Below are positions 6,826 through 31,018 of a stretch of 64,000 nt of DNA, piece by piece; positions within the stretch are counted from its first letter, which is position 1, and each line of letters begins with the position of its first letter. The position numbers and the translations under genes were made by a program. The stretch is from Escherichia phage vB_EcoM_LNA6, in sequence record OM630585.1; one strand, given 5' to 3'. The notes under the pieces were generated by a model. It saw nothing but the letters and a program-made list of their open reading frames with translations, did not search any database and was not told where the DNA came from.

Positions 6826-7275
6826 ATGTGCTATACAGGCGACCCAGCCAATAACCCTCTTGATAGAGTAAGAATCCTCTGCACAGACACCAATAATGAT
6901 GAAATTCTTATTGAACAGTCTGTGCTAGAGTGGTTCTATCTAGAATCTGGAAAGGATGAAAAGAAAGCAGCCATCAAAGCTCTTAAATATTTACTCTTTC
7001 AAGTAGCCAAGATGGGAGATGAGAAGGTTGGTGGTGTTTATTTACGTAACTCTTCCAGATTCAAATCTCTGAAAGCTGTTTATGACGACCTTGTTAAAAG
7101 CTCTGTTTCAGGACTACCCTATGCAGGTGGTATTAATCAGTGTGATATTGACATGCGTCGTCAGAATCCTTGCTCTGTCAAGAAATACACAGAATATGGT
7201 GATGCTGCCAGATACGAAGGCAGAGATTACTGCAACCGTGTTAATGGCGTATTTATTATCGAGCGAGATGAATAA
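6826..7275 (+). CDS. hypothetical protein (head-tail joining region)
   Basis: 149 aa ORF with GGAGG RBS upstream. Confidence 0.4.
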   Translation: MCYTGDPANNPLDRVRILCTDTNNDEILIEQSVLEWFYLESGKDEKKAAIKALKYLLFQVAKMGDEKVGGVYLRNSSRFKSLKAVYDDLVKSSVSGLPYAGGINQCDIDMRRQNPCSVKKYTEYGDAARYEGRDYCNRVNGVFIIERDE

Positions 7276-25709: not shown

Positions 25710-26069
25710 TTATGGGAACAAACACTTAATGTCATCGTTTTTGAAAACAAAACTTGTGTAATTATGACCATCAACATCCAGCCAAACAGCCTGAACATCT
25801 ACACCATCAAGATTTTGGTAAAGCTCTTTGATGAAGTGGTCTTTTACAATCTGACTGCTAGTTGTTTCCAACTTAATGTTCGAGATTGCTGAACCTACAG
25901 CCATATAGCCCATGACACGTTTCTTCTCAGTATGCTTAATCTTACCATCTTTGTAAGCCATAATGAGATTGGAAAGAATCTTTACACCGTAATACTTTTC
26001 AAGGTGAGTAGGTACACCATAAAAGCCTAATGCGAAGTTTTCAGAGTGGATAATGTTTTCACGTTTCAT
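25710..26069 (-). CDS. hypothetical protein
   Basis: 119 aa ORF. Confidence 0.4.
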   Translation of the reverse strand: MKRENIIHSENFALGFYGVPTHLEKYYGVKILSNLIMAYKDGKIKHTEKKRVMGYMAVGSAISNIKLETTSSQIVKDHFIKELYQNLDGVDVQAVWLDVDGHNYTSFVFKNDDIKCLFP

Positions 26070-26070
26070 A

Positions 26071-26370
26071 CTAGTCTGCCAACCTTAAATTGAAATTAAC
26101 ACCAAATTTTTCACATACTTCCAACATATACTCAAGGGAAACATTACCAGTGAGGTGGATTATGTTGGATACACGAGCCTGAGAGATACCACAAATTTTA
26201 GCAACTTGCTCTTGAGAAAGACCTCTTGATTTAATCTCTCTCTTAAAACGATGTGCAACGAAGTCTCTCATTTCATCTACATCCATTGGACAAATATAAC
26301 TCTCCATTTCAGCCTCTCTATCAGCCTCCCAATCATCTTGTGGGGCATAAGGGTCAAAAACCTCATTCAT
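26071..26370 (-). CDS. XRE-type helix-turn-helix DNA-binding protein
   Basis: C-terminal GLSQEQVAKICGISQARVSNIIH matches HTH_XRE pattern; start trimmed to ATG 26370 (track start at 26400 is TTG). Confidence 0.5.
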   Translation of the reverse strand: MNEVFDPYAPQDDWEADREAEMESYICPMDVDEMRDFVAHRFKREIKSRGLSQEQVAKICGISQARVSNIIHLTGNVSLEYMLEVCEKFGVNFNLRLAD

Positions 26371-26575
26371 CTTTCTTCTTCCGTTTGAGTGAAGTGTCAA
26401 TCAATGAATCTATGTTTGTAGCCCTAACCTTTTCACGTTCATCATTAAGATAATCGTCAAGAGCCTTTTCAATCTGTGAATCATCTTGACAGATGACTGT
26501 AAAGACTGTAAAGCCGTCTGTATCGTCAATTATCTTACCATAACCGCTTCTGGGATGTAACTTTTTAAGAGCCAT
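26363..26575 (-). CDS. hypothetical protein
   Basis: 70 aa ORF. Confidence 0.35.
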   Translation of the reverse strand: MALKKLHPRSGYGKIIDDTDGFTVFTVICQDDSQIEKALDDYLNDEREKVRATNIDSLIDTSLKRKKKDE

Positions 26576-26576
26576 A

Positions 26577-26960
26577 TTAGATACCTGTGCAGCTTCTGTT
26601 TTCTAAGAAATACTCAACACCATACATAGCTTTTTGCATCAAATCTTCTTTAAACTGGATACGATGGTTGAGCATAGCCTGTACATCAATATCATCATGG
26701 TGCTTCTCTTTAATATTTGCAGATTGCAGGAAATACTCTGCAAGAACGCGATACTGGTAGTCAGTTACCTTATCAGTCATCTCTGTCAAAGACTCTTCAG
26801 AGATTGGTTTAAGTAGCTCACCATTAGCTAGAGCAACACCTTTTACAATCTGGCAAGTATCCTCTGGAACACCTGATAAGTCCACATTTGGAAGTTCTGT
26901 TGCATTGACTGGTAAATTCATTGCCATAACCATTGCAGCAGCTAATAAAATCTTTTTCAT
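26577..26960 (-). CDS. secreted protein with N-terminal signal peptide (hypothetical)
   Basis: 127 aa; MKKILLAAAMVMAMNLPVNA signal-peptide-like N-terminus. Confidence 0.5.
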   Translation of the reverse strand: MKKILLAAAMVMAMNLPVNATELPNVDLSGVPEDTCQIVKGVALANGELLKPISEESLTEMTDKVTDYQYRVLAEYFLQSANIKEKHHDDIDVQAMLNHRIQFKEDLMQKAMYGVEYFLENRSCTGI

Positions 26961-27004
26961 AATGACCTCAAAGTTATATTAAATTTTGTATTACATTGAG
27001 TATA

Positions 27005-27033
27005 AAAATAAGCTATAACACCTGACTTGTCAA
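27005..27033 (-). promoter_or_regulatory. sigma70-like promoter candidate (minus strand, TTGACA-N17-TATTTT)
   Basis: Minus-strand TTGACA corresponds to + 27028-27033; weak -10; about 40 nt upstream of secreted-protein gene start 26960. Confidence 0.3.
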
Positions 27034-27050
27034 CAGATTTTATAGCTTAT

Positions 27051-27177
27051 TTGGCAGATTTTTTATAAGGCTACTGCCATCCTTCCATACCTTACCTTAC
27101 CACACCTAACCATACCTAACCAAACTACACCATACAATACCTTGTTAAAAGACCCTCTTAAAGACCTTTTAAAAAGG
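27051..27177 (-). repeat. GG-periodic intergenic repeat, copy A (G/T-rich on the transcribed minus strand)
   Basis: About 127 bp, about 75-80% identical by eye to 28310-28457; shared blocks TTGG(C/T)AGATTTTT, GGCTACT(G/A)CCATCC, CCATACCT, CTAACCAAACT, TTAAAGACCTTTTAAAAAGG. Confidence 0.6.
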
Positions 27178-27193
27178 AGCCTCCGAAGAGGCT
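27178..27193 (-). terminator. intrinsic terminator hairpin (minus strand) after gene 27205..27645
   Basis: AGCCTC-CGAA-GAGGCT hairpin; on the minus strand followed by CCTTTTTAAAAGG. Confidence 0.45.
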
Positions 27194-27204
27194 GCCTAGT
27201 CAAC

Positions 27205-27645
27205 TTAGAAAGGTTTTCTACGTTGCTTGTTAATGTTAGCTTTCATAGCAGCTAAATGGTTTTGCTGTTCAATTAGTCGTGAACGTTCTTGATGGCTAAG
27301 TGCCATAGTGTTCACATTCTCAATTGCTTGAGTGGCTTGCTTTAAAGCTCGACCAATCTTACCAGACATTTTACGTTTTGCAATAGTTGCTTGATGCTTA
27401 GGTTCAACCACACGATAACCAACACCCATTGAAGCAACCAGATAAATCTTCTCTTCTTTAAGAAGCTTCTCAATAAACTTCTCAAGTCGGTTTAGACGTG
27501 TAAGCGCATAAGCCTTCATTTCATCTTCGTACTTAACAATGTCACCTTGATAAGTTGGCTTCACAATACCTAAGAAGGTGTCCATCTCAGAATGTGATAC
27601 AGTGTCACCGTAACTAAACTTTGCTGCTAATGCTTTCGTATTCAT
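27205..27645 (-). CDS. hypothetical protein (repeat-flanked cassette gene 2)
   Basis: 146 aa ORF, basic C-terminus; no recognisable motif. Confidence 0.45.
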   Translation of the reverse strand: MNTKALAAKFSYGDTVSHSEMDTFLGIVKPTYQGDIVKYEDEMKAYALTRLNRLEKFIEKLLKEEKIYLVASMGVGYRVVEPKHQATIAKRKMSGKIGRALKQATQAIENVNTMALSHQERSRLIEQQNHLAAMKANINKQRRKPF

Positions 27646-27647
27646 AA

Positions 27648-28253
<606 letters not shown>

Positions 28254-28309
28254 TTAGTTGATTGTTAAGTTGTTTGTAAAGAACCCTCAACAGAAGACTC
28301 TTTAGAAAC

Positions 28310-28457
28310 TTGGTAGATTTTTAACGTGGCTACTACCATCCACCCATACCTCACATCACCATACCATACCTGACCGGACCTAACCAAACTCCACAGCACC
28401 ATACATCACATCACACAACCTTATTAAAAGCCCCTGTTTAAAGACCTTTTAAAAAGG
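28310..28457 (-). repeat. GG-periodic intergenic repeat, copy B1
   Basis: Homologous to 27051-27177; minus strand reads GG runs spaced about 5 nt apart. Confidence 0.6.
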
Positions 28458-28487
28458 TAAGTCTCATTTTAATGTAGCTGAGACTAA
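28458..28487 (-). terminator. terminator/attenuator-like hairpin within leader (minus strand)
   Basis: AGTCTCA ... TGAGACT 7 bp stem; on the minus strand followed by CCTTTTTAAAAGG. Confidence 0.4.
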
Positions 28488-28587
28488 CTACCCATACCAA
28501 ACAGCACCGCACTATGCCTTACCCCACCTCACCGAGCCTCGCCCCACATCACTTAAAAACCCTTTTCAAAGACTCTTAAGTGATGTT
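28488..28587 (-). repeat. partial/degenerate repeat copy B2 with 11 bp-stem hairpin
   Basis: CCATACC/CACC blocks and TTAAAAACCCTTTTCAAAGAC resembling the conserved 3' block; inverted repeat ACATCACTTAA/TTAAGTGATGT at about 28546-28587. Confidence 0.45.
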
Positions 28588-28615
28588 GGTGAGTACCCGT
28601 TGGTTTATGCTGCTC

Positions 28616-28643
28616 AGTATACTCACCAAATTTTCTATGTCAA
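28616..28643 (-). promoter_or_regulatory. sigma70-like promoter (minus strand, TTGACA-N16-TATACT)
   Basis: Minus-strand TTGACA = + 28638-28643; -10 TATACT = + 28616-28621; 16 nt spacer; directed into repeats B2/B1 and gene 27648..28250. Confidence 0.5.
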
Positions 28644-28650
28644 CAACTTT

Positions 28651-28797
28651 TTATAAAAAAGTTCTGATAGCTATATGTGTCACGAAACAAAAGATTGTAA
28701 ACAAGACACCCATTGCAAAAGATGTGTCCAAAAGCTTACTTGCAACGTATGACAATACAAAGACAACCAGTATAAACAGAATGACTGTACTGAACAT
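28651..28797 (-). CDS. small hydrophobic membrane protein (48 aa; below ORF-track cutoff)
   Basis: ATG at 28797 to TAA at 28651-28653, translating MFSTVILFILVVFVLSYVASKLLDTSFAMGVLFTIFCFVTHIAIRTFL; weak RBS; co-oriented with neighbours unlike overlapping + ORF 28580..28810. Confidence 0.35.
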   Translation of the reverse strand: MFSTVILFILVVFVLSYVASKLLDTSFAMGVLFTIFCFVTHIAIRTFL

Positions 28798-28800
28798 AGT

Positions 28801-29901
28801 TTATTCATAATCCCTAATAACTAGCCCTACAGGGAACTGTAAAGACCCCTTACGAGTCATCTTCTGGAACTGAACCGTTAAAGGTTTCCCGATAAACTCT
28901 TCAGGGTGTTCAGCAAGATACTGTTTCTTCTCGTGAGTAGTCTTCCATGAAACATCTACAAAGACGTTAGGAAGAGTCTCTACAACGAACTTACCATGAC
29001 CACGCTTATCGGTCTTGACACCAGTCACTTTAAACTCTTCAGTGTGCATCTTCTTGTGCTTAATCAAGAAGTATGAACGGTGACAACACTCATAGAAGGA
29101 GTCTTCAGAGATTGAACGGTACATTGCACCTTCAAACTTAGCTTCAACCCACTTATCATGAGCTTCATCAAACTCTTCCCAAGAATTTACACGGATAGTC
29201 TGTACAGGAACAACTCTACAGGTATCCCCAAGCTCAACAATAGGTGAGTTATCAATAACTTCACGACGTTCAGGCCAAGATTTTGAATTGTCGCAGATAT
29301 CATACCAGTAGAATTTAAGAAGGTGACGGTCTGGATTGTCAGCATTCTTAATCATAGACACAATGTCTTCTAAGTCCCAACCATGAGCATAAATCTCGCC
29401 ATCAAAGTCTTCAACTTGTGGATGTAATTTAAGCAACAAAAGCAAATCTGGGATTAGTTCTTCTGGAACGTTGTAAACAGTATTCTCACGAGAATAAGCC
29501 GTGAAACTAACTGAATCATCATCTCTTGAAATTCTACAACGAACACCATCAAATTTTGGTTGAGCATCAGCAGGGAACTTCAGGTACTTCGCATGACTAA
29601 CCTTTGCAGCATCATGAGCAAGCTGTACACCTACCTTCTCAGTATTCTGTGCAGACTCTTTTGTGTAAGCATAACCTTTACGGTCAACTTGCTTTTTATA
29701 CTTAGCAGCAACTTCAAAGAGAGCTTGCTGTTCAGTGTTACGCTCATTCTTTTTACCGATGTTTTTAGGTTCTGCTGTATACTCTTCAAACATCATCTTG
29801 CCATTTTCTTTACCGTAGGTTGTAATAACTTTGTCACCTACAGCAACGCATGACCAGACGTTGAAGGAACCGTCTTTATTTTGTTTGTACAGAATTGTCA
29901 T
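28801..29901 (-). CDS. ATP-dependent DNA ligase
   Basis: 366 aa; KFDGVR matches the ligase KxDG adenylation motif; size similar to T7-type ligases. Confidence 0.7.
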   Translation of the reverse strand: MTILYKQNKDGSFNVWSCVAVGDKVITTYGKENGKMMFEEYTAEPKNIGKKNERNTEQQALFEVAAKYKKQVDRKGYAYTKESAQNTEKVGVQLAHDAAKVSHAKYLKFPADAQPKFDGVRCRISRDDDSVSFTAYSRENTVYNVPEELIPDLLLLLKLHPQVEDFDGEIYAHGWDLEDIVSMIKNADNPDRHLLKFYWYDICDNSKSWPERREVIDNSPIVELGDTCRVVPVQTIRVNSWEEFDEAHDKWVEAKFEGAMYRSISEDSFYECCHRSYFLIKHKKMHTEEFKVTGVKTDKRGHGKFVVETLPNVFVDVSWKTTHEKKQYLAEHPEEFIGKPLTVQFQKMTRKGSLQFPVGLVIRDYE

Positions 29902-30104
29902 TTTCTCTTACCACCAATCTCTACGTCAATAACTTGAACATCGCCAGCAACATCAAACTTATGAATGATGCTTTCCACAGTGTAAGTCCAACCATCAATG
30001 CGAACCAACTCGCCTTCTCGTGGGACGATTGGATTACGTTGAGCTACGGTTGTAGTGGAGTGAACAACATCATAACGATAGGTATAGTTTACTAATACTT
30101 CCAT
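29898..30104 (-). CDS. hypothetical protein
   Basis: Start trimmed to ATG 30104 (MEVLVNY...) with GAGG RBS; 68 aa; avoids overlap with upstream lipoprotein gene. Confidence 0.4.
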   Translation of the reverse strand: MEVLVNYTYRYDVVHSTTTVAQRNPIVPREGELVRIDGWTYTVESIIHKFDVAGDVQVIDVEIGGKRK

Positions 30105-30114
30105 CGTGAAAACC

Positions 30115-30351
30115 TCACTCAATAACCGTGGTATGTGATTGACCATTTTTGCCATAGCTATAAGATGTTGTTGTTTGAGAGTTTGGACATCTGACAACAA
30201 CAATATCTCTGCTTATAGCATCACCATGTAACTTGTATACTCTGCAATCTTGCATCTCTGGTGGGAGGCTGTAAGAAGCATTTTTATCTTCATAAGAAGG
30301 GTTGCAGCCAGATAGAAAAATAACACCAAGCGCAATTACTGATTTCCACAT
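30115..30351 (-). CDS. small lipoprotein (lipobox LSGC)
   Basis: Start at ATG 30351 (MWKSVIALGVIFLSGC) gives a signal peptide ending in lipobox L-S-G-C; AGGGG RBS upstream; track start at 30375 is GTG. Confidence 0.55.
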   Translation of the reverse strand: MWKSVIALGVIFLSGCNPSYEDKNASYSLPPEMQDCRVYKLHGDAISRDIVVVRCPNSQTTTSYSYGKNGQSHTTVIE

Positions 30352-30364
30352 AATACACCCCTGT

Positions 30365-30520
30365 TTACTGTTCACGATGCTCTACTTCTCTGTATGTACG
30401 TCGATAATGAATGATAAGTGGTGCTAATTCATTGCTTTTAACATTTGAGCGTAACAGTTGCCAGTCAAAACCTTTACCAACTCTTCCATATAAATTAAAA
30501 AACTTAACTTTGCGTTTCAT
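30365..30520 (-). CDS. small basic protein (51 aa; below ORF-track cutoff)
   Basis: ATG 30520 preceded by GGAG; translates MKRKVKFFNLYGRVGKGFDWQLLRSNVKSNELAPLIIHYRRTYREVEHREQ. Confidence 0.3.
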   Translation of the reverse strand: MKRKVKFFNLYGRVGKGFDWQLLRSNVKSNELAPLIIHYRRTYREVEHREQ

Positions 30521-30538
30521 TTTCGGTATCTCCAATAT

Positions 30539-30766
30539 TCAGAGGTTAATATTAATACGTTCGCCCTTAAGGACTCCAGTACGGTCCCTTGCAATCTTAC
30601 CATCAACAATAAGGATATGCGCAGACCTTAAAGAGTCACCATTAAAACCTTTTACGAACTTACTAGGCATCACTACAATGGACATCTCCTGAATCATCTC
30701 TGGAGTATAGTAATTGTCGTGAAGTTGCTGAATAACGTCTGCAAGTGTCATTTTTGATGTCTCCAA
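30539..30766 (-). CDS. hypothetical protein
   Basis: 75 aa ORF. Confidence 0.35.
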   Translation of the reverse strand: METSKMTLADVIQQLHDNYYTPEMIQEMSIVVMPSKFVKGFNGDSLRSAHILIVDGKIARDRTGVLKGERININL

Positions 30767-30957
30767 TACTCAATGTCAATAAGTTCTTGTGCAATGCTTT
30801 TCAGATTACCTTTCAAGAAAACCTTCTCAGAACATGAAAGAGATGAATTGTCAATTAACCTGTTCATTCTCTCAAACAGCTTCTGCTTACGATTTTTGAT
30901 AGTCTCCTTTGAAGCACCTTTCATCATCGCTGCATGGGTTCTTCCACGATGGCTCAT
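30748..30957 (-). CDS. hypothetical protein
   Basis: 69 aa basic ORF. Confidence 0.35.
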   Translation of the reverse strand: MSHRGRTHAAMMKGASKETIKNRKQKLFERMNRLIDNSSLSCSEKVFLKGNLKSIAQELIDIEYWRHQK

Positions 30958-31018
30958 AAGCCCTCCTATATAAGATATAGTATAAGGTACTCTTCCCTGA
31001 GCACCTTGTCAATACTAA

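Follow-up and report, generated by a model that had tools for sequence, protein, structure and literature searches.

Positions 28458-28643 on the minus strand of the window (that is, of the whole 64,000-nt stretch of Escherichia phage vB_EcoM_LNA6, record OM630585.1, that was analysed) raise the question of what is made from a promoter that is followed by a long, repeat-bearing leader and a two-gene cassette. A sequence-only reading of the region had argued that this was not a simple untranslated region (UTR), and had named transcription attenuation, a riboregulatory element and a small RNA as the options. It is the small RNA that has stood: the region is very probably the promoter, the 5' boundary hairpin and the first guide RNA gene (vrRNA-A) of a type II Viral Interference Programmable Repeat (VIPR) locus of the SUSP1 clade. 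Discrete ~100-nt RNAs are indicated by the small-RNA sequencing of phage SUSP1, taken together with the near-identical sequence found here.

VIPR was described in two 2026 preprints (bioRxiv 10.64898/2026.04.26.720920 and 10.64898/2026.04.26.720927). Vipr is reported to be a minimal RAMP protein (RRM core, G-loop and thumb) and each guide (vrRNA) to consist of 9-16 YNNGG repeats and a ~40-nt tail with a pseudoknot. One Vipr protomer is bound per GGY triplet, the NN dinucleotides pair with double-stranded DNA (dsDNA) with every third base skipped, and the complex silences the transcription of competing phages and satellites (both preprints). In SUSP1-infected cells, four ~100-nt vrRNAs (one upstream and three downstream of vipr-vap1) were detected by small-RNA sequencing, and the vrRNAs co-purified with Vipr in a pull-down (bioRxiv 10.64898/2026.04.26.720920). 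The pseudoknot of the SUSP1 vrRNA was reported and resolved by cryo-electron microscopy (cryo-EM), and the SUSP1 clade was defined by >90% identity to SUSP1 Vipr (bioRxiv 10.64898/2026.04.26.720920 and 10.64898/2026.04.26.720927).

Vipr and its guide RNAs

The 195-aa product of vipr (28235..27648, minus strand), a Cas7-like (RAMP) protein predicted from SUSP1 to form a filament on vrRNA, shares 190 of its 195 residues (97%) with PDB chain 36pp_D ('SUSP1 Vipr protein', E = 6e-128), which was the only relative returned by a PDB sequence search. A model predicted with AlphaFold2 from 38 homologues reached a predicted local distance difference test (pLDDT) score of 95.6, and its top Foldseek matches were Csm3 and type VII Cas7, the backbone subunits of type III and type VII CRISPR effectors. 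The residues assigned in the paper to GGY or DNA binding (H17, K33, R39, E71, M72, K82, G87, K88, R138, C173, D177, W178 and R179) are all present. At residue 175 (27711..27713) the preprint names T175 in the pyrimidine pocket; since both the window protein and the deposited SUSP1 chain carry V175 (CGVGDWR), this is not a real difference, and the T175 of the preprint probably stems from an error of numbering or typing.

Translation of vipr starts at the ATG at 28235 and not at the GTG at 28250: a GGAG precedes the ATG, and the resulting length agrees with wV8 gp95 and SUSP1 Vipr. The next gene is vap1 (VIPR accessory protein, 146 aa, 27645..27205, minus strand), with ~145 of 146 residues identical to the gene that follows vipr in SUSP1 (locus L017); its product belongs to phrog_5926. 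Searches with both cassette genes gave no match in Pfam and only families of unknown function in PHROGs. Vipr is carried at ≥90% identity by 117 phage records, mostly of Escherichia, Salmonella and Shigella phages, and in all the records listed vipr is a 'hypothetical protein' or is unannotated. In the records of wV8, KhF3 and garuso, both cassette genes are hypothetical.

The two repeat copies noted earlier in the leader (B2 and B1) are both real, and a third copy lies at 27143..27084. Each of the three is an array of (NNGGY)n pentamers read on the gene strand, and their number is to be set against 0.04 arrays per mononucleotide shuffle of the window. The vrRNA-A repeat tract (28555..28491, minus strand) has 13 pentamers, or 11 without the two that lie in the arm of the preceding hairpin, and its NN code reads GG GA TC GA GG AA AT GC GC TT AT; the same allele was found in phage garuso (L003). 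The vrRNA-B tract (28422..28343, minus strand) has 16 pentamers with the code AA TG GA GA AT GC GG TT TA CC CA AT AT GA GA AT, and the vrRNA-C tract (27143..27084, minus strand; 27143..27052 with its tail) has 12 with the code AA AT AT GT TT TA AT TA GT AA AA AT.

For comparison, 18 related loci were taken from IMG/VR with the 195-aa protein. A detector for which G at position 4 was obligatory gathered 1161 pentamers; of these, 80% had G at position 3 and 93% had T or C at position 5, with positions 1-2 free. The tracts are only 59% identical between phages and differ in length vs flanks that are 96-99% identical, and the strict 5-nt register (NNGGY)n is kept in every tract despite this variability. 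NNGGY arrays also lie beside the genes of Vipr homologues at 37-44% identity, in other viral contigs and in prophage-like regions of Xanthomonadaceae and Rhodococcus, the unit being NNGGC in GC-rich hosts; the protein therefore has the arrays as a conserved partner, and they are not a leader restricted to one phage. Five traits of type II VIPR (SUSP1 clade) were found at this locus, namely Vipr, its GGY- and DNA-binding residues, the YNNGG arrays, the pseudoknotted tail and vap1.

Array number varied between the loci (L001-L021), with 1-3 units upstream and 1-3 downstream. Some array alleles recurred in several genomes and differed only by whole pentamers (CAGGT x3 vs x4; an AAGGT GGTGT duplication), and slippage in steps of 5 nt is therefore also at work in their evolution.

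Each array is followed by a structured tail. Covariation in an alignment of the tails gave, for vrRNA-A, an H-type pseudoknot (28493..28451, minus strand) in which GUAG (28491-28488) pairs with CUAC (28477-28474), the latter being held in the loop of a hairpin formed by AGUCUCA (28485-28479) and UGAGACU (28466-28460); UACC and five U come next. Both arms of this hairpin are present in the sequence and are followed by UACCUUUUUAAAAGG. The corresponding pseudoknots of vrRNA-B (28345..28311, minus strand) and vrRNA-C (27086..27052, minus strand) are formed by GUGG with CCAC and AAGG with CCUU, and their hairpins by UGGUAG with CUACCA and UGGCAG with CUGCCA, respectively. The gap-free alignment contained 21 distinct tails of four types, the tails of Escherichia coli satellites included, and 88% of its cells were paired vs ≤46% in controls with slid partners. 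The pseudoknot helix was 100% paired with 3 of 4 pairs covarying (GUAG/CUAC, GUGG/CCAC, AAGG/CCUU), the hairpin had compensatory changes in 6 of 8 pairs, and 9 of 12 pairs overall were changed on both sides; shuffle controls for such covariation counts ignore the relatedness of the sequences, which the slid-partner controls take into account, and the two agree. This pseudoknot caps every vrRNA, also those with no gene behind them. The 7-bp hairpin followed by CCUUUUUAAAAGG that had been described from the sequence is indeed present, and it is the hairpin of the vrRNA-A tail pseudoknot.

Promoter, boundary hairpins and the leader of vipr

On the minus strand, the order of elements is promoter, hairpin 1, vrRNA-A, hairpin 2, vrRNA-B, hairpin 3, ribosome-binding site (RBS), vipr, vap1, terminator-like hairpin, hairpin 4, vrRNA-C and the next promoter. 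The sigma-70-like promoter of the vrRNA-vipr-vap1 operon (TTGACA-N16-TATACT, 28643..28616, minus strand) lies where it had been placed, agrees with the consensus at 11 of 12 positions and outscores the other promoter-like sites in 26000-31000. As a class, promoter-like sites are not enriched in that interval (17 found vs 12.6 +/- 4.0 expected), and the case for this site therefore rests on its score, its conservation (92-100% in the 19 related genomes, SUSP1 among them) and its placement, always at the 5' border of the module in these genomes. With transcription predicted to start near 28609, the leader is ~370 nt long; the sequence-only reading had set the promoter ~360 nt upstream of the start codon of the frame 27648..28250. 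Across the related loci the promoter and hairpins, and the vipr 5' UTR, are nearly invariant (median identity 96% and 99%).

An 18-19-bp hairpin with the conserved core GUCUU-N(3-7)-AGGGU precedes every array and the vipr RBS, and these elements are called punctuation hairpins here. Hairpin 1 (28586..28546, minus strand) has a 19-bp stem, where an 11-bp stem had been described before, with the core GAGUCUUU...AGGGUUUU; its minimum free energy is -25.6 kcal/mol (z = -5.9), and 0/200 shuffles folded as well. Hairpin 2 (ACCUUUUUAAAAGGUCUUUAAACAGGGGCUUUUAAUAAGGU, 28458..28418, minus strand; -14.2 kcal/mol, z = -2.95) lies between vrRNA-A and vrRNA-B and includes the CCUUUUUAAAAGG mentioned above, hairpin 3 (AAAGAGUCUUCUGUUGAGGGUUCUUU, 28303..28278, minus strand) lies in the vipr 5' UTR just upstream of the RBS, and hairpin 4 (27177..27140, minus strand) precedes vrRNA-C. 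The outer stem occurs in two unrelated sequence versions, both of which pair. In the alignment, 88% of cells were paired and 6 of 18 pairs were compensatory, a count that is lowered by the rows of hairpin 3, which pairs one column out of register with the alignment structure and whose pairing was read from the sequence.

The hairpins are present in SUSP1 as well, and neither VIPR preprint (bioRxiv 10.64898/2026.04.26.720920 and 10.64898/2026.04.26.720927) mentions punctuation hairpins or any RNase. The 3' arm of hairpin 1 supplies two constant pseudo-repeats, TAAGT GATGT. In SUSP1 vrRNA1 our detector counted 14 pentamers vs 12 repeats in the cryo-EM paper; the difference is accounted for by these pseudo-repeats, an indication that the 5' end of the mature RNA falls within that arm or behind it.

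The early polycistronic transcripts of phage T7 carry RNase III processing hairpins between genes, with stems of ~18-20 bp and internal wobble or mismatch positions. The punctuation hairpins resemble these in having such stems, wobble or mismatch positions included, between the functional units of one transcript. Unlike in T7, the core GUCUU...AGGGU is conserved in sequence here, which suggests a specific recognition factor and not a generic duplex geometry, and cleavage is putative. The ends of the vrRNAs, we infer, may arise by cleavage in the punctuation hairpins (e.g. by RNase III) and/or by termination at the U run after the vrRNA-A tail. As a tentative proposal, which we hold to be possible and still short of an even chance, the hairpins may be a dedicated processing and boundary signal of type II VIPR arrays, with a function like that of the CRISPR repeat together with Cas6 or RNase III. 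In this proposal the RBS-adjacent copy would couple the expression of vipr and vap1 to guide maturation, and minihelices in a Rhodococcus locus would recruit tRNA-processing enzymes.

That locus is a prophage-like region of the Rhodococcus globerulus chromosome (L028 7100-7740), where a vipr-like gene pair is followed downstream by five (NNGGC)n arrays. The first four arrays each end in GTCCGG...GGCGGTTCGATTCCGCCGCCGGAC, which forms a T-arm plus acceptor-like minihelix, and the fifth is followed by a different hairpin. Two of the minihelices were called by ARAGORN as odd tRNAs, and weak matches to the tmRNA T-arm were returned by Rfam. The arrangement suggests that these vrRNAs may be matured by tRNA-processing enzymes; tRNA is never mentioned in the VIPR preprint. 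A motif similar to the punctuation hairpins (GGGUCUUCGCAAGAGGGUCCC / GGGGGTCTTCGCAAGAGGGTCCCC) was also seen between the arrays of a Xanthomonadaceae prophage-like VIPR locus (L030 ~7215-7240).

The position of two guides in the leader of vipr allows a second use that would be compatible with a guide RNA locus. The leader vrRNAs might also limit vipr itself, a Vipr filament on the nascent leader and cleavage at hairpin 3 coupling the stability or translation of the vipr mRNA to the Vipr:vrRNA ratio. In its favour, vrRNA-B ends ~75 nt before the vipr ATG, hairpin 3 lies ~30 nt upstream of the GGAG RBS in a stretch that is 99% conserved (more than vipr), and all 19 Felixounavirus-type loci, like several distant ones, keep at least one vrRNA upstream of vipr. 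The conservation of the UTR could, however, simply reflect processing and translation signals, and the published plasmid work, which used heterologous promoters, reports no autoregulation. On this evidence such self-limitation appears rather unlikely.

Much less probable still is the cis-acting attenuator or riboregulator of the sequence-only reading, in which a hairpin and U run near 28458 would terminate transcription early and so control the cassette. A hairpin and then UACCUUUUU do lie between the promoter and vipr, and because vrRNA-A and vrRNA-B are physically within the vipr 5' leader, termination at 28451 would lower the transcription of vipr and vap1. The vrRNA-A hairpin by itself is nevertheless a poor terminator: in isolation it is weak (-12.5 kcal/mol, z = -1.8), it has a 12-nt loop and 3 nt between the stem and the U run, and a terminator scan did not flag it, so that the description of it as terminator-like was not borne out. 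A sensor would have to lie in the segment upstream, and among near-identical phages this segment is hypervariable. The same pseudoknot also ends vrRNA-C and the vrRNAs located downstream in SUSP1, where no gene comes next, and SUSP1 keeps the same operon with one upstream unit and without this hairpin. No cis-regulatory family was matched in Rfam: at the gathering score there were 0 matches in the whole window, and at E ≤ 1 the interval 26950-28700 gave only a chance-level match inside vap1 and no riboswitch, attenuator or small RNA family. An RNA start near 28608 and 3' ends near 28458 would, on the guide RNA reading, stem from the production of a trans-acting guide RNA.

A role of the G/T-rich arrays at the level of DNA can practically be dismissed, whether as a transcription-primed R-loop origin of replication, as a site for a partition protein or as a hotspot of recombination on either side of a mobile cassette. 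One array is annotated 'possible binding site of StbAB' in GenBank KT184315 (and only 'DR_4' in wV8). In favour of such a role, a strong promoter reads into a tract with a G-rich non-template strand beside replication genes, the arrays flank a two-gene cassette, and the varying number of units between genomes shows frequent recombination or slippage. None of these roles, however, requires a strict 5-nt GGY register with free NN, the very pattern that Vipr recognises on RNA. The arrays also accompany vipr homologues in unrelated viral contigs and prophage-like regions whose replication modules differ, the compensatory changes in the structured tails argue for an RNA product, and lone copies with their own promoter occur in satellites without vipr. 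Several other working hypotheses (a TRAP-like ring-protein site, an R-loop origin like switch-region pentamers, a G-quadruplex, a Rho rut site on the opposite strand, a RecA/Chi-like hotspot and cold-shock-protein sites, GTCTTT) were dropped because the 195-aa gene proved to be Vipr by its fold and by its PDB 36pp match.

The surroundings of the locus are those of a Felix O1-like phage. With the Felixounaviruses Barry and Tribble the region shares 98.7% identity, matches to it occur in 259 phage records, and by sequence the host genome is a Barry/Tribble-like Felixounavirus. Every gene in this part of the window is on the minus strand. A DNA ligase gene (28801..29901, minus strand) and a small 48-aa membrane open reading frame (ORF; 28651..28797, minus strand) lie 5' of the promoter, the leader elements occupy the 415-nt intergenic region between this ORF and the 195-aa gene (minus strand), and a second intergenic region (minus strand) lies 3' of the 146-aa gene. 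A GC-rich terminator-like hairpin (27193..27178, minus strand) follows vap1 and is itself followed by punctuation hairpin 4. Directly after the vrRNA-C tail, a second promoter-like site (TTGACA-17-TATTTT, 27033..27005, minus strand, 10/12 consensus) presumably drives the next gene (26577..26960). vrRNA-C, which sits between the terminator-like hairpin and this site, has no obvious promoter of its own, and its transcription must therefore come from read-through.

Three contexts were seen 5' of the promoter among the related loci (L004-L021 ~1950-2150, equivalent to ~28650-28800 of the window). The promoter follows the 48-aa membrane ORF in some and comes straight after the stop codon of the ligase gene in others, while in L008, L015, L017 (SUSP1) and L021 (SUSP2) an inserted gene stands there, for which garuso has the annotation HNH endonuclease. 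Whichever of the three precedes it, the VIPR module always starts at the promoter. Public records label the repeats as 'DR_4' (wV8, EU877232), 'repeat_region' (garuso, MN850566) or 'possible binding site of StbAB' (KhF3, KT184315), and the Felix O1 and UAB_Phi87 genome papers contain no discussion of them.

Proposed action and predicted targets

Because the locus is nearly identical to that of SUSP1, for which the steps were shown, the same mechanism is proposed here. The transcript would yield ~100-nt vrRNAs; a Vipr protomer would bind each GGY triplet and flip it out, building a helical filament capped by the 3' pseudoknot; the exposed NN dinucleotides would pair with dsDNA, skipping every third target base; and an R-loop triplex would form and block transcription of the target. 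The likely prey is a ~11-kb satellite between wrbA and ymdF in E. coli, with vrRNA-C predicted to act on the -10 region of the promoter of its leftward operon.

This element was reached from the locus itself. When the locus was compared by BLAST with 5,426 complete E. coli genomes, only the 3' part of vrRNA-B and its tail matched, in unannotated DNA of 134 chromosomes. The match belongs to a lone vrRNA held by a satellite-like element of ~11 kb between wrbA and ymdF (L033 10595-20859, from a pig isolate, with variants L034-L037). The element carries genes for a large serine recombinase, baseplate and tape-measure proteins, an HNH protein, several small ORFs and a small recombinase. Its lone vrRNA lies in a ~1.5-kb non-coding stretch and has a promoter to itself (TTGATG-17-TATAAT), and the stem of its tail is compensated (UGUCG/CGAC). 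No vipr is present in the element, so that its vrRNA would have to borrow the Vipr of a helper phage. In the preprint a satellite is named as the main prey of SUSP1-clade guides, and the wrbA-ymdF element fits it. The same lone vrRNA and small recombinase were also seen beside yciI in E. coli O111:H- 11128 (L032 13858-15369), next to lambdoid prophage genes disrupted by an insertion sequence (IS); their presence at a different chromosomal site indicates that the element, or a fragment of it, is mobile. L032 contained no target for the window guides.

Guides were scored with our own script under the NNx code (1-nt skip) against a panel of five variants of the satellite, the published threshold for a natural target being a ≥80% NN match. 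On L033 (satellite and host flanks), 18 of 66 unique Felixounavirus guides reached this threshold at a 1-nt skip; with the same guides, only 3, 5 and 7 reached it at skips of 0, 2 and 3. This result is an independent reproduction of the published code. vrRNA-C matched 20 of 24 positions (83%) in two satellites, a score reached by 0/200 shuffled guides. Its site covers the -10 element and ~20 nt downstream in the promoter TTGACA-17-TAGTAT of the satellite leftward operon, in the promoter region L034 19573-19607, and ends ~30 nt upstream of the first gene of that operon, which is where a roadblock would be most effective. vrRNA-B matched 23 of 32 positions (72%) in the large recombinase gene of the satellite, in frame and with the skipped bases at wobble positions (1/200 shuffles equalled it). 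No self-target for the window guides was found in the window. Taken together, the phage probably uses its VIPR module against a parasitic satellite element.

Several points weigh against this interpretation, and against the wider one on which it depends. The vrRNA-B match is below the published 80% threshold. vrRNA-A, the RNA that lies within 28458-28643, has no target in the five satellite variants; exact 10-NN cores of vrRNA-A, like those of vrRNA-B and vrRNA-C, gave 0 matches each in IMG/VR, its exact 11-NN gave 0 in the JGI metagenomes (the vrRNA-B core also gave 0 there), and in species-representative genomes it gave 2 matches, at seed length only and at chance level, in unrelated environmental metagenome-assembled genomes. 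Such exact-match NNx scans miss imperfect targets, and the target panel consisted of five satellite genomes and not of the E. coli pangenome. Transcription, processing and the formation of the ribonucleoprotein in this phage are extrapolated from SUSP1, and the supporting literature consists of two preprints from one laboratory (bioRxiv 10.64898/2026.04.26.720920 and 10.64898/2026.04.26.720927).

Significance and comparison with known systems

VIPR is a notable recent discovery, an RNA-guided system for DNA silencing with a non-contiguous code that has been proposed to be ancestral to the RAMP proteins of CRISPR. Both the system and what is known of its grammar, structure and biological role have been published, and the present locus is inside the characterised clade, so that what was found here is, in the main, already known; the window adds nothing fundamental and shows that VIPR is common in the phage collection searched. 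Only modest additions to the preprints were made: recurrent punctuation hairpins, vrRNAs in a 2+1 arrangement, a predicted promoter-proximal target for vrRNA-C and tRNA-like tails in the actinobacterial locus. The annotations 'hypothetical protein', 'DR_4', 'repeat_region' and StbAB site can now be corrected, and for Felix O1-type phages used in therapy or biocontrol the vrRNA repertoire predicts which satellites or competing elements each isolate could silence.

The closest known relative is SUSP1 itself. Vipr is 97% identical (vipr 96% at the DNA level) and vap1 ~99%, the promoter and first hairpin are 96% identical, and the 95 nt of the vipr 5' UTR that were compared show no difference. The repeat grammar (YNNGG, within the range of 9-16) and the types of pseudoknotted tail are the same, as is the kind of predicted natural target, an E. 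coli satellite with baseplate and tape-measure genes. The two differ in the host genome (Barry/Tribble-like here), in the NN code of the guides and in the number and placement of the guides, with two vrRNAs upstream and one downstream here vs one upstream and three downstream in SUSP1, whose locus (L017) showed the published 1+3 layout in our hands as well.

The tryptophan-operon leader bound by TRAP in Bacillus (11 G/UAG triplets with 2-3-nt spacers) is similar in having a triplet period of ~5 nt in a 5' leader, with free spacers. Membership of the TRAP family was ruled out by comparison of the folds: TRAP is a beta-sandwich 11-mer ring that acts by attenuation in cis, whereas here a RAMP filament with information-bearing spacers would act in trans on DNA.

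The likeness to the backbones of Class 1 CRISPR-Cas systems (Cas7/Csm3) extends from the RAMP/RRM fold with G-loop and thumb to the use of one protomer per guide repeat with periodic base flipping, and to a variable guide joined to a conserved structured handle, with several guides made as an array from one promoter. No CRISPR repeats, Cas1/Cas2 or Cas6 were found at the locus, where the only repeats are the pentamer arrays and the hairpins and the neighbours are vap1, DNA ligase and small ORFs. Unlike CRISPR, in which five pairing bases alternate with one flipped base, VIPR has a period of 5 nt in which only 2 bases of each unit pair and 1 nt of the target is skipped; its guide is itself a degenerate tandem repeat, and the system is phage-encoded and a member of no CRISPR type.

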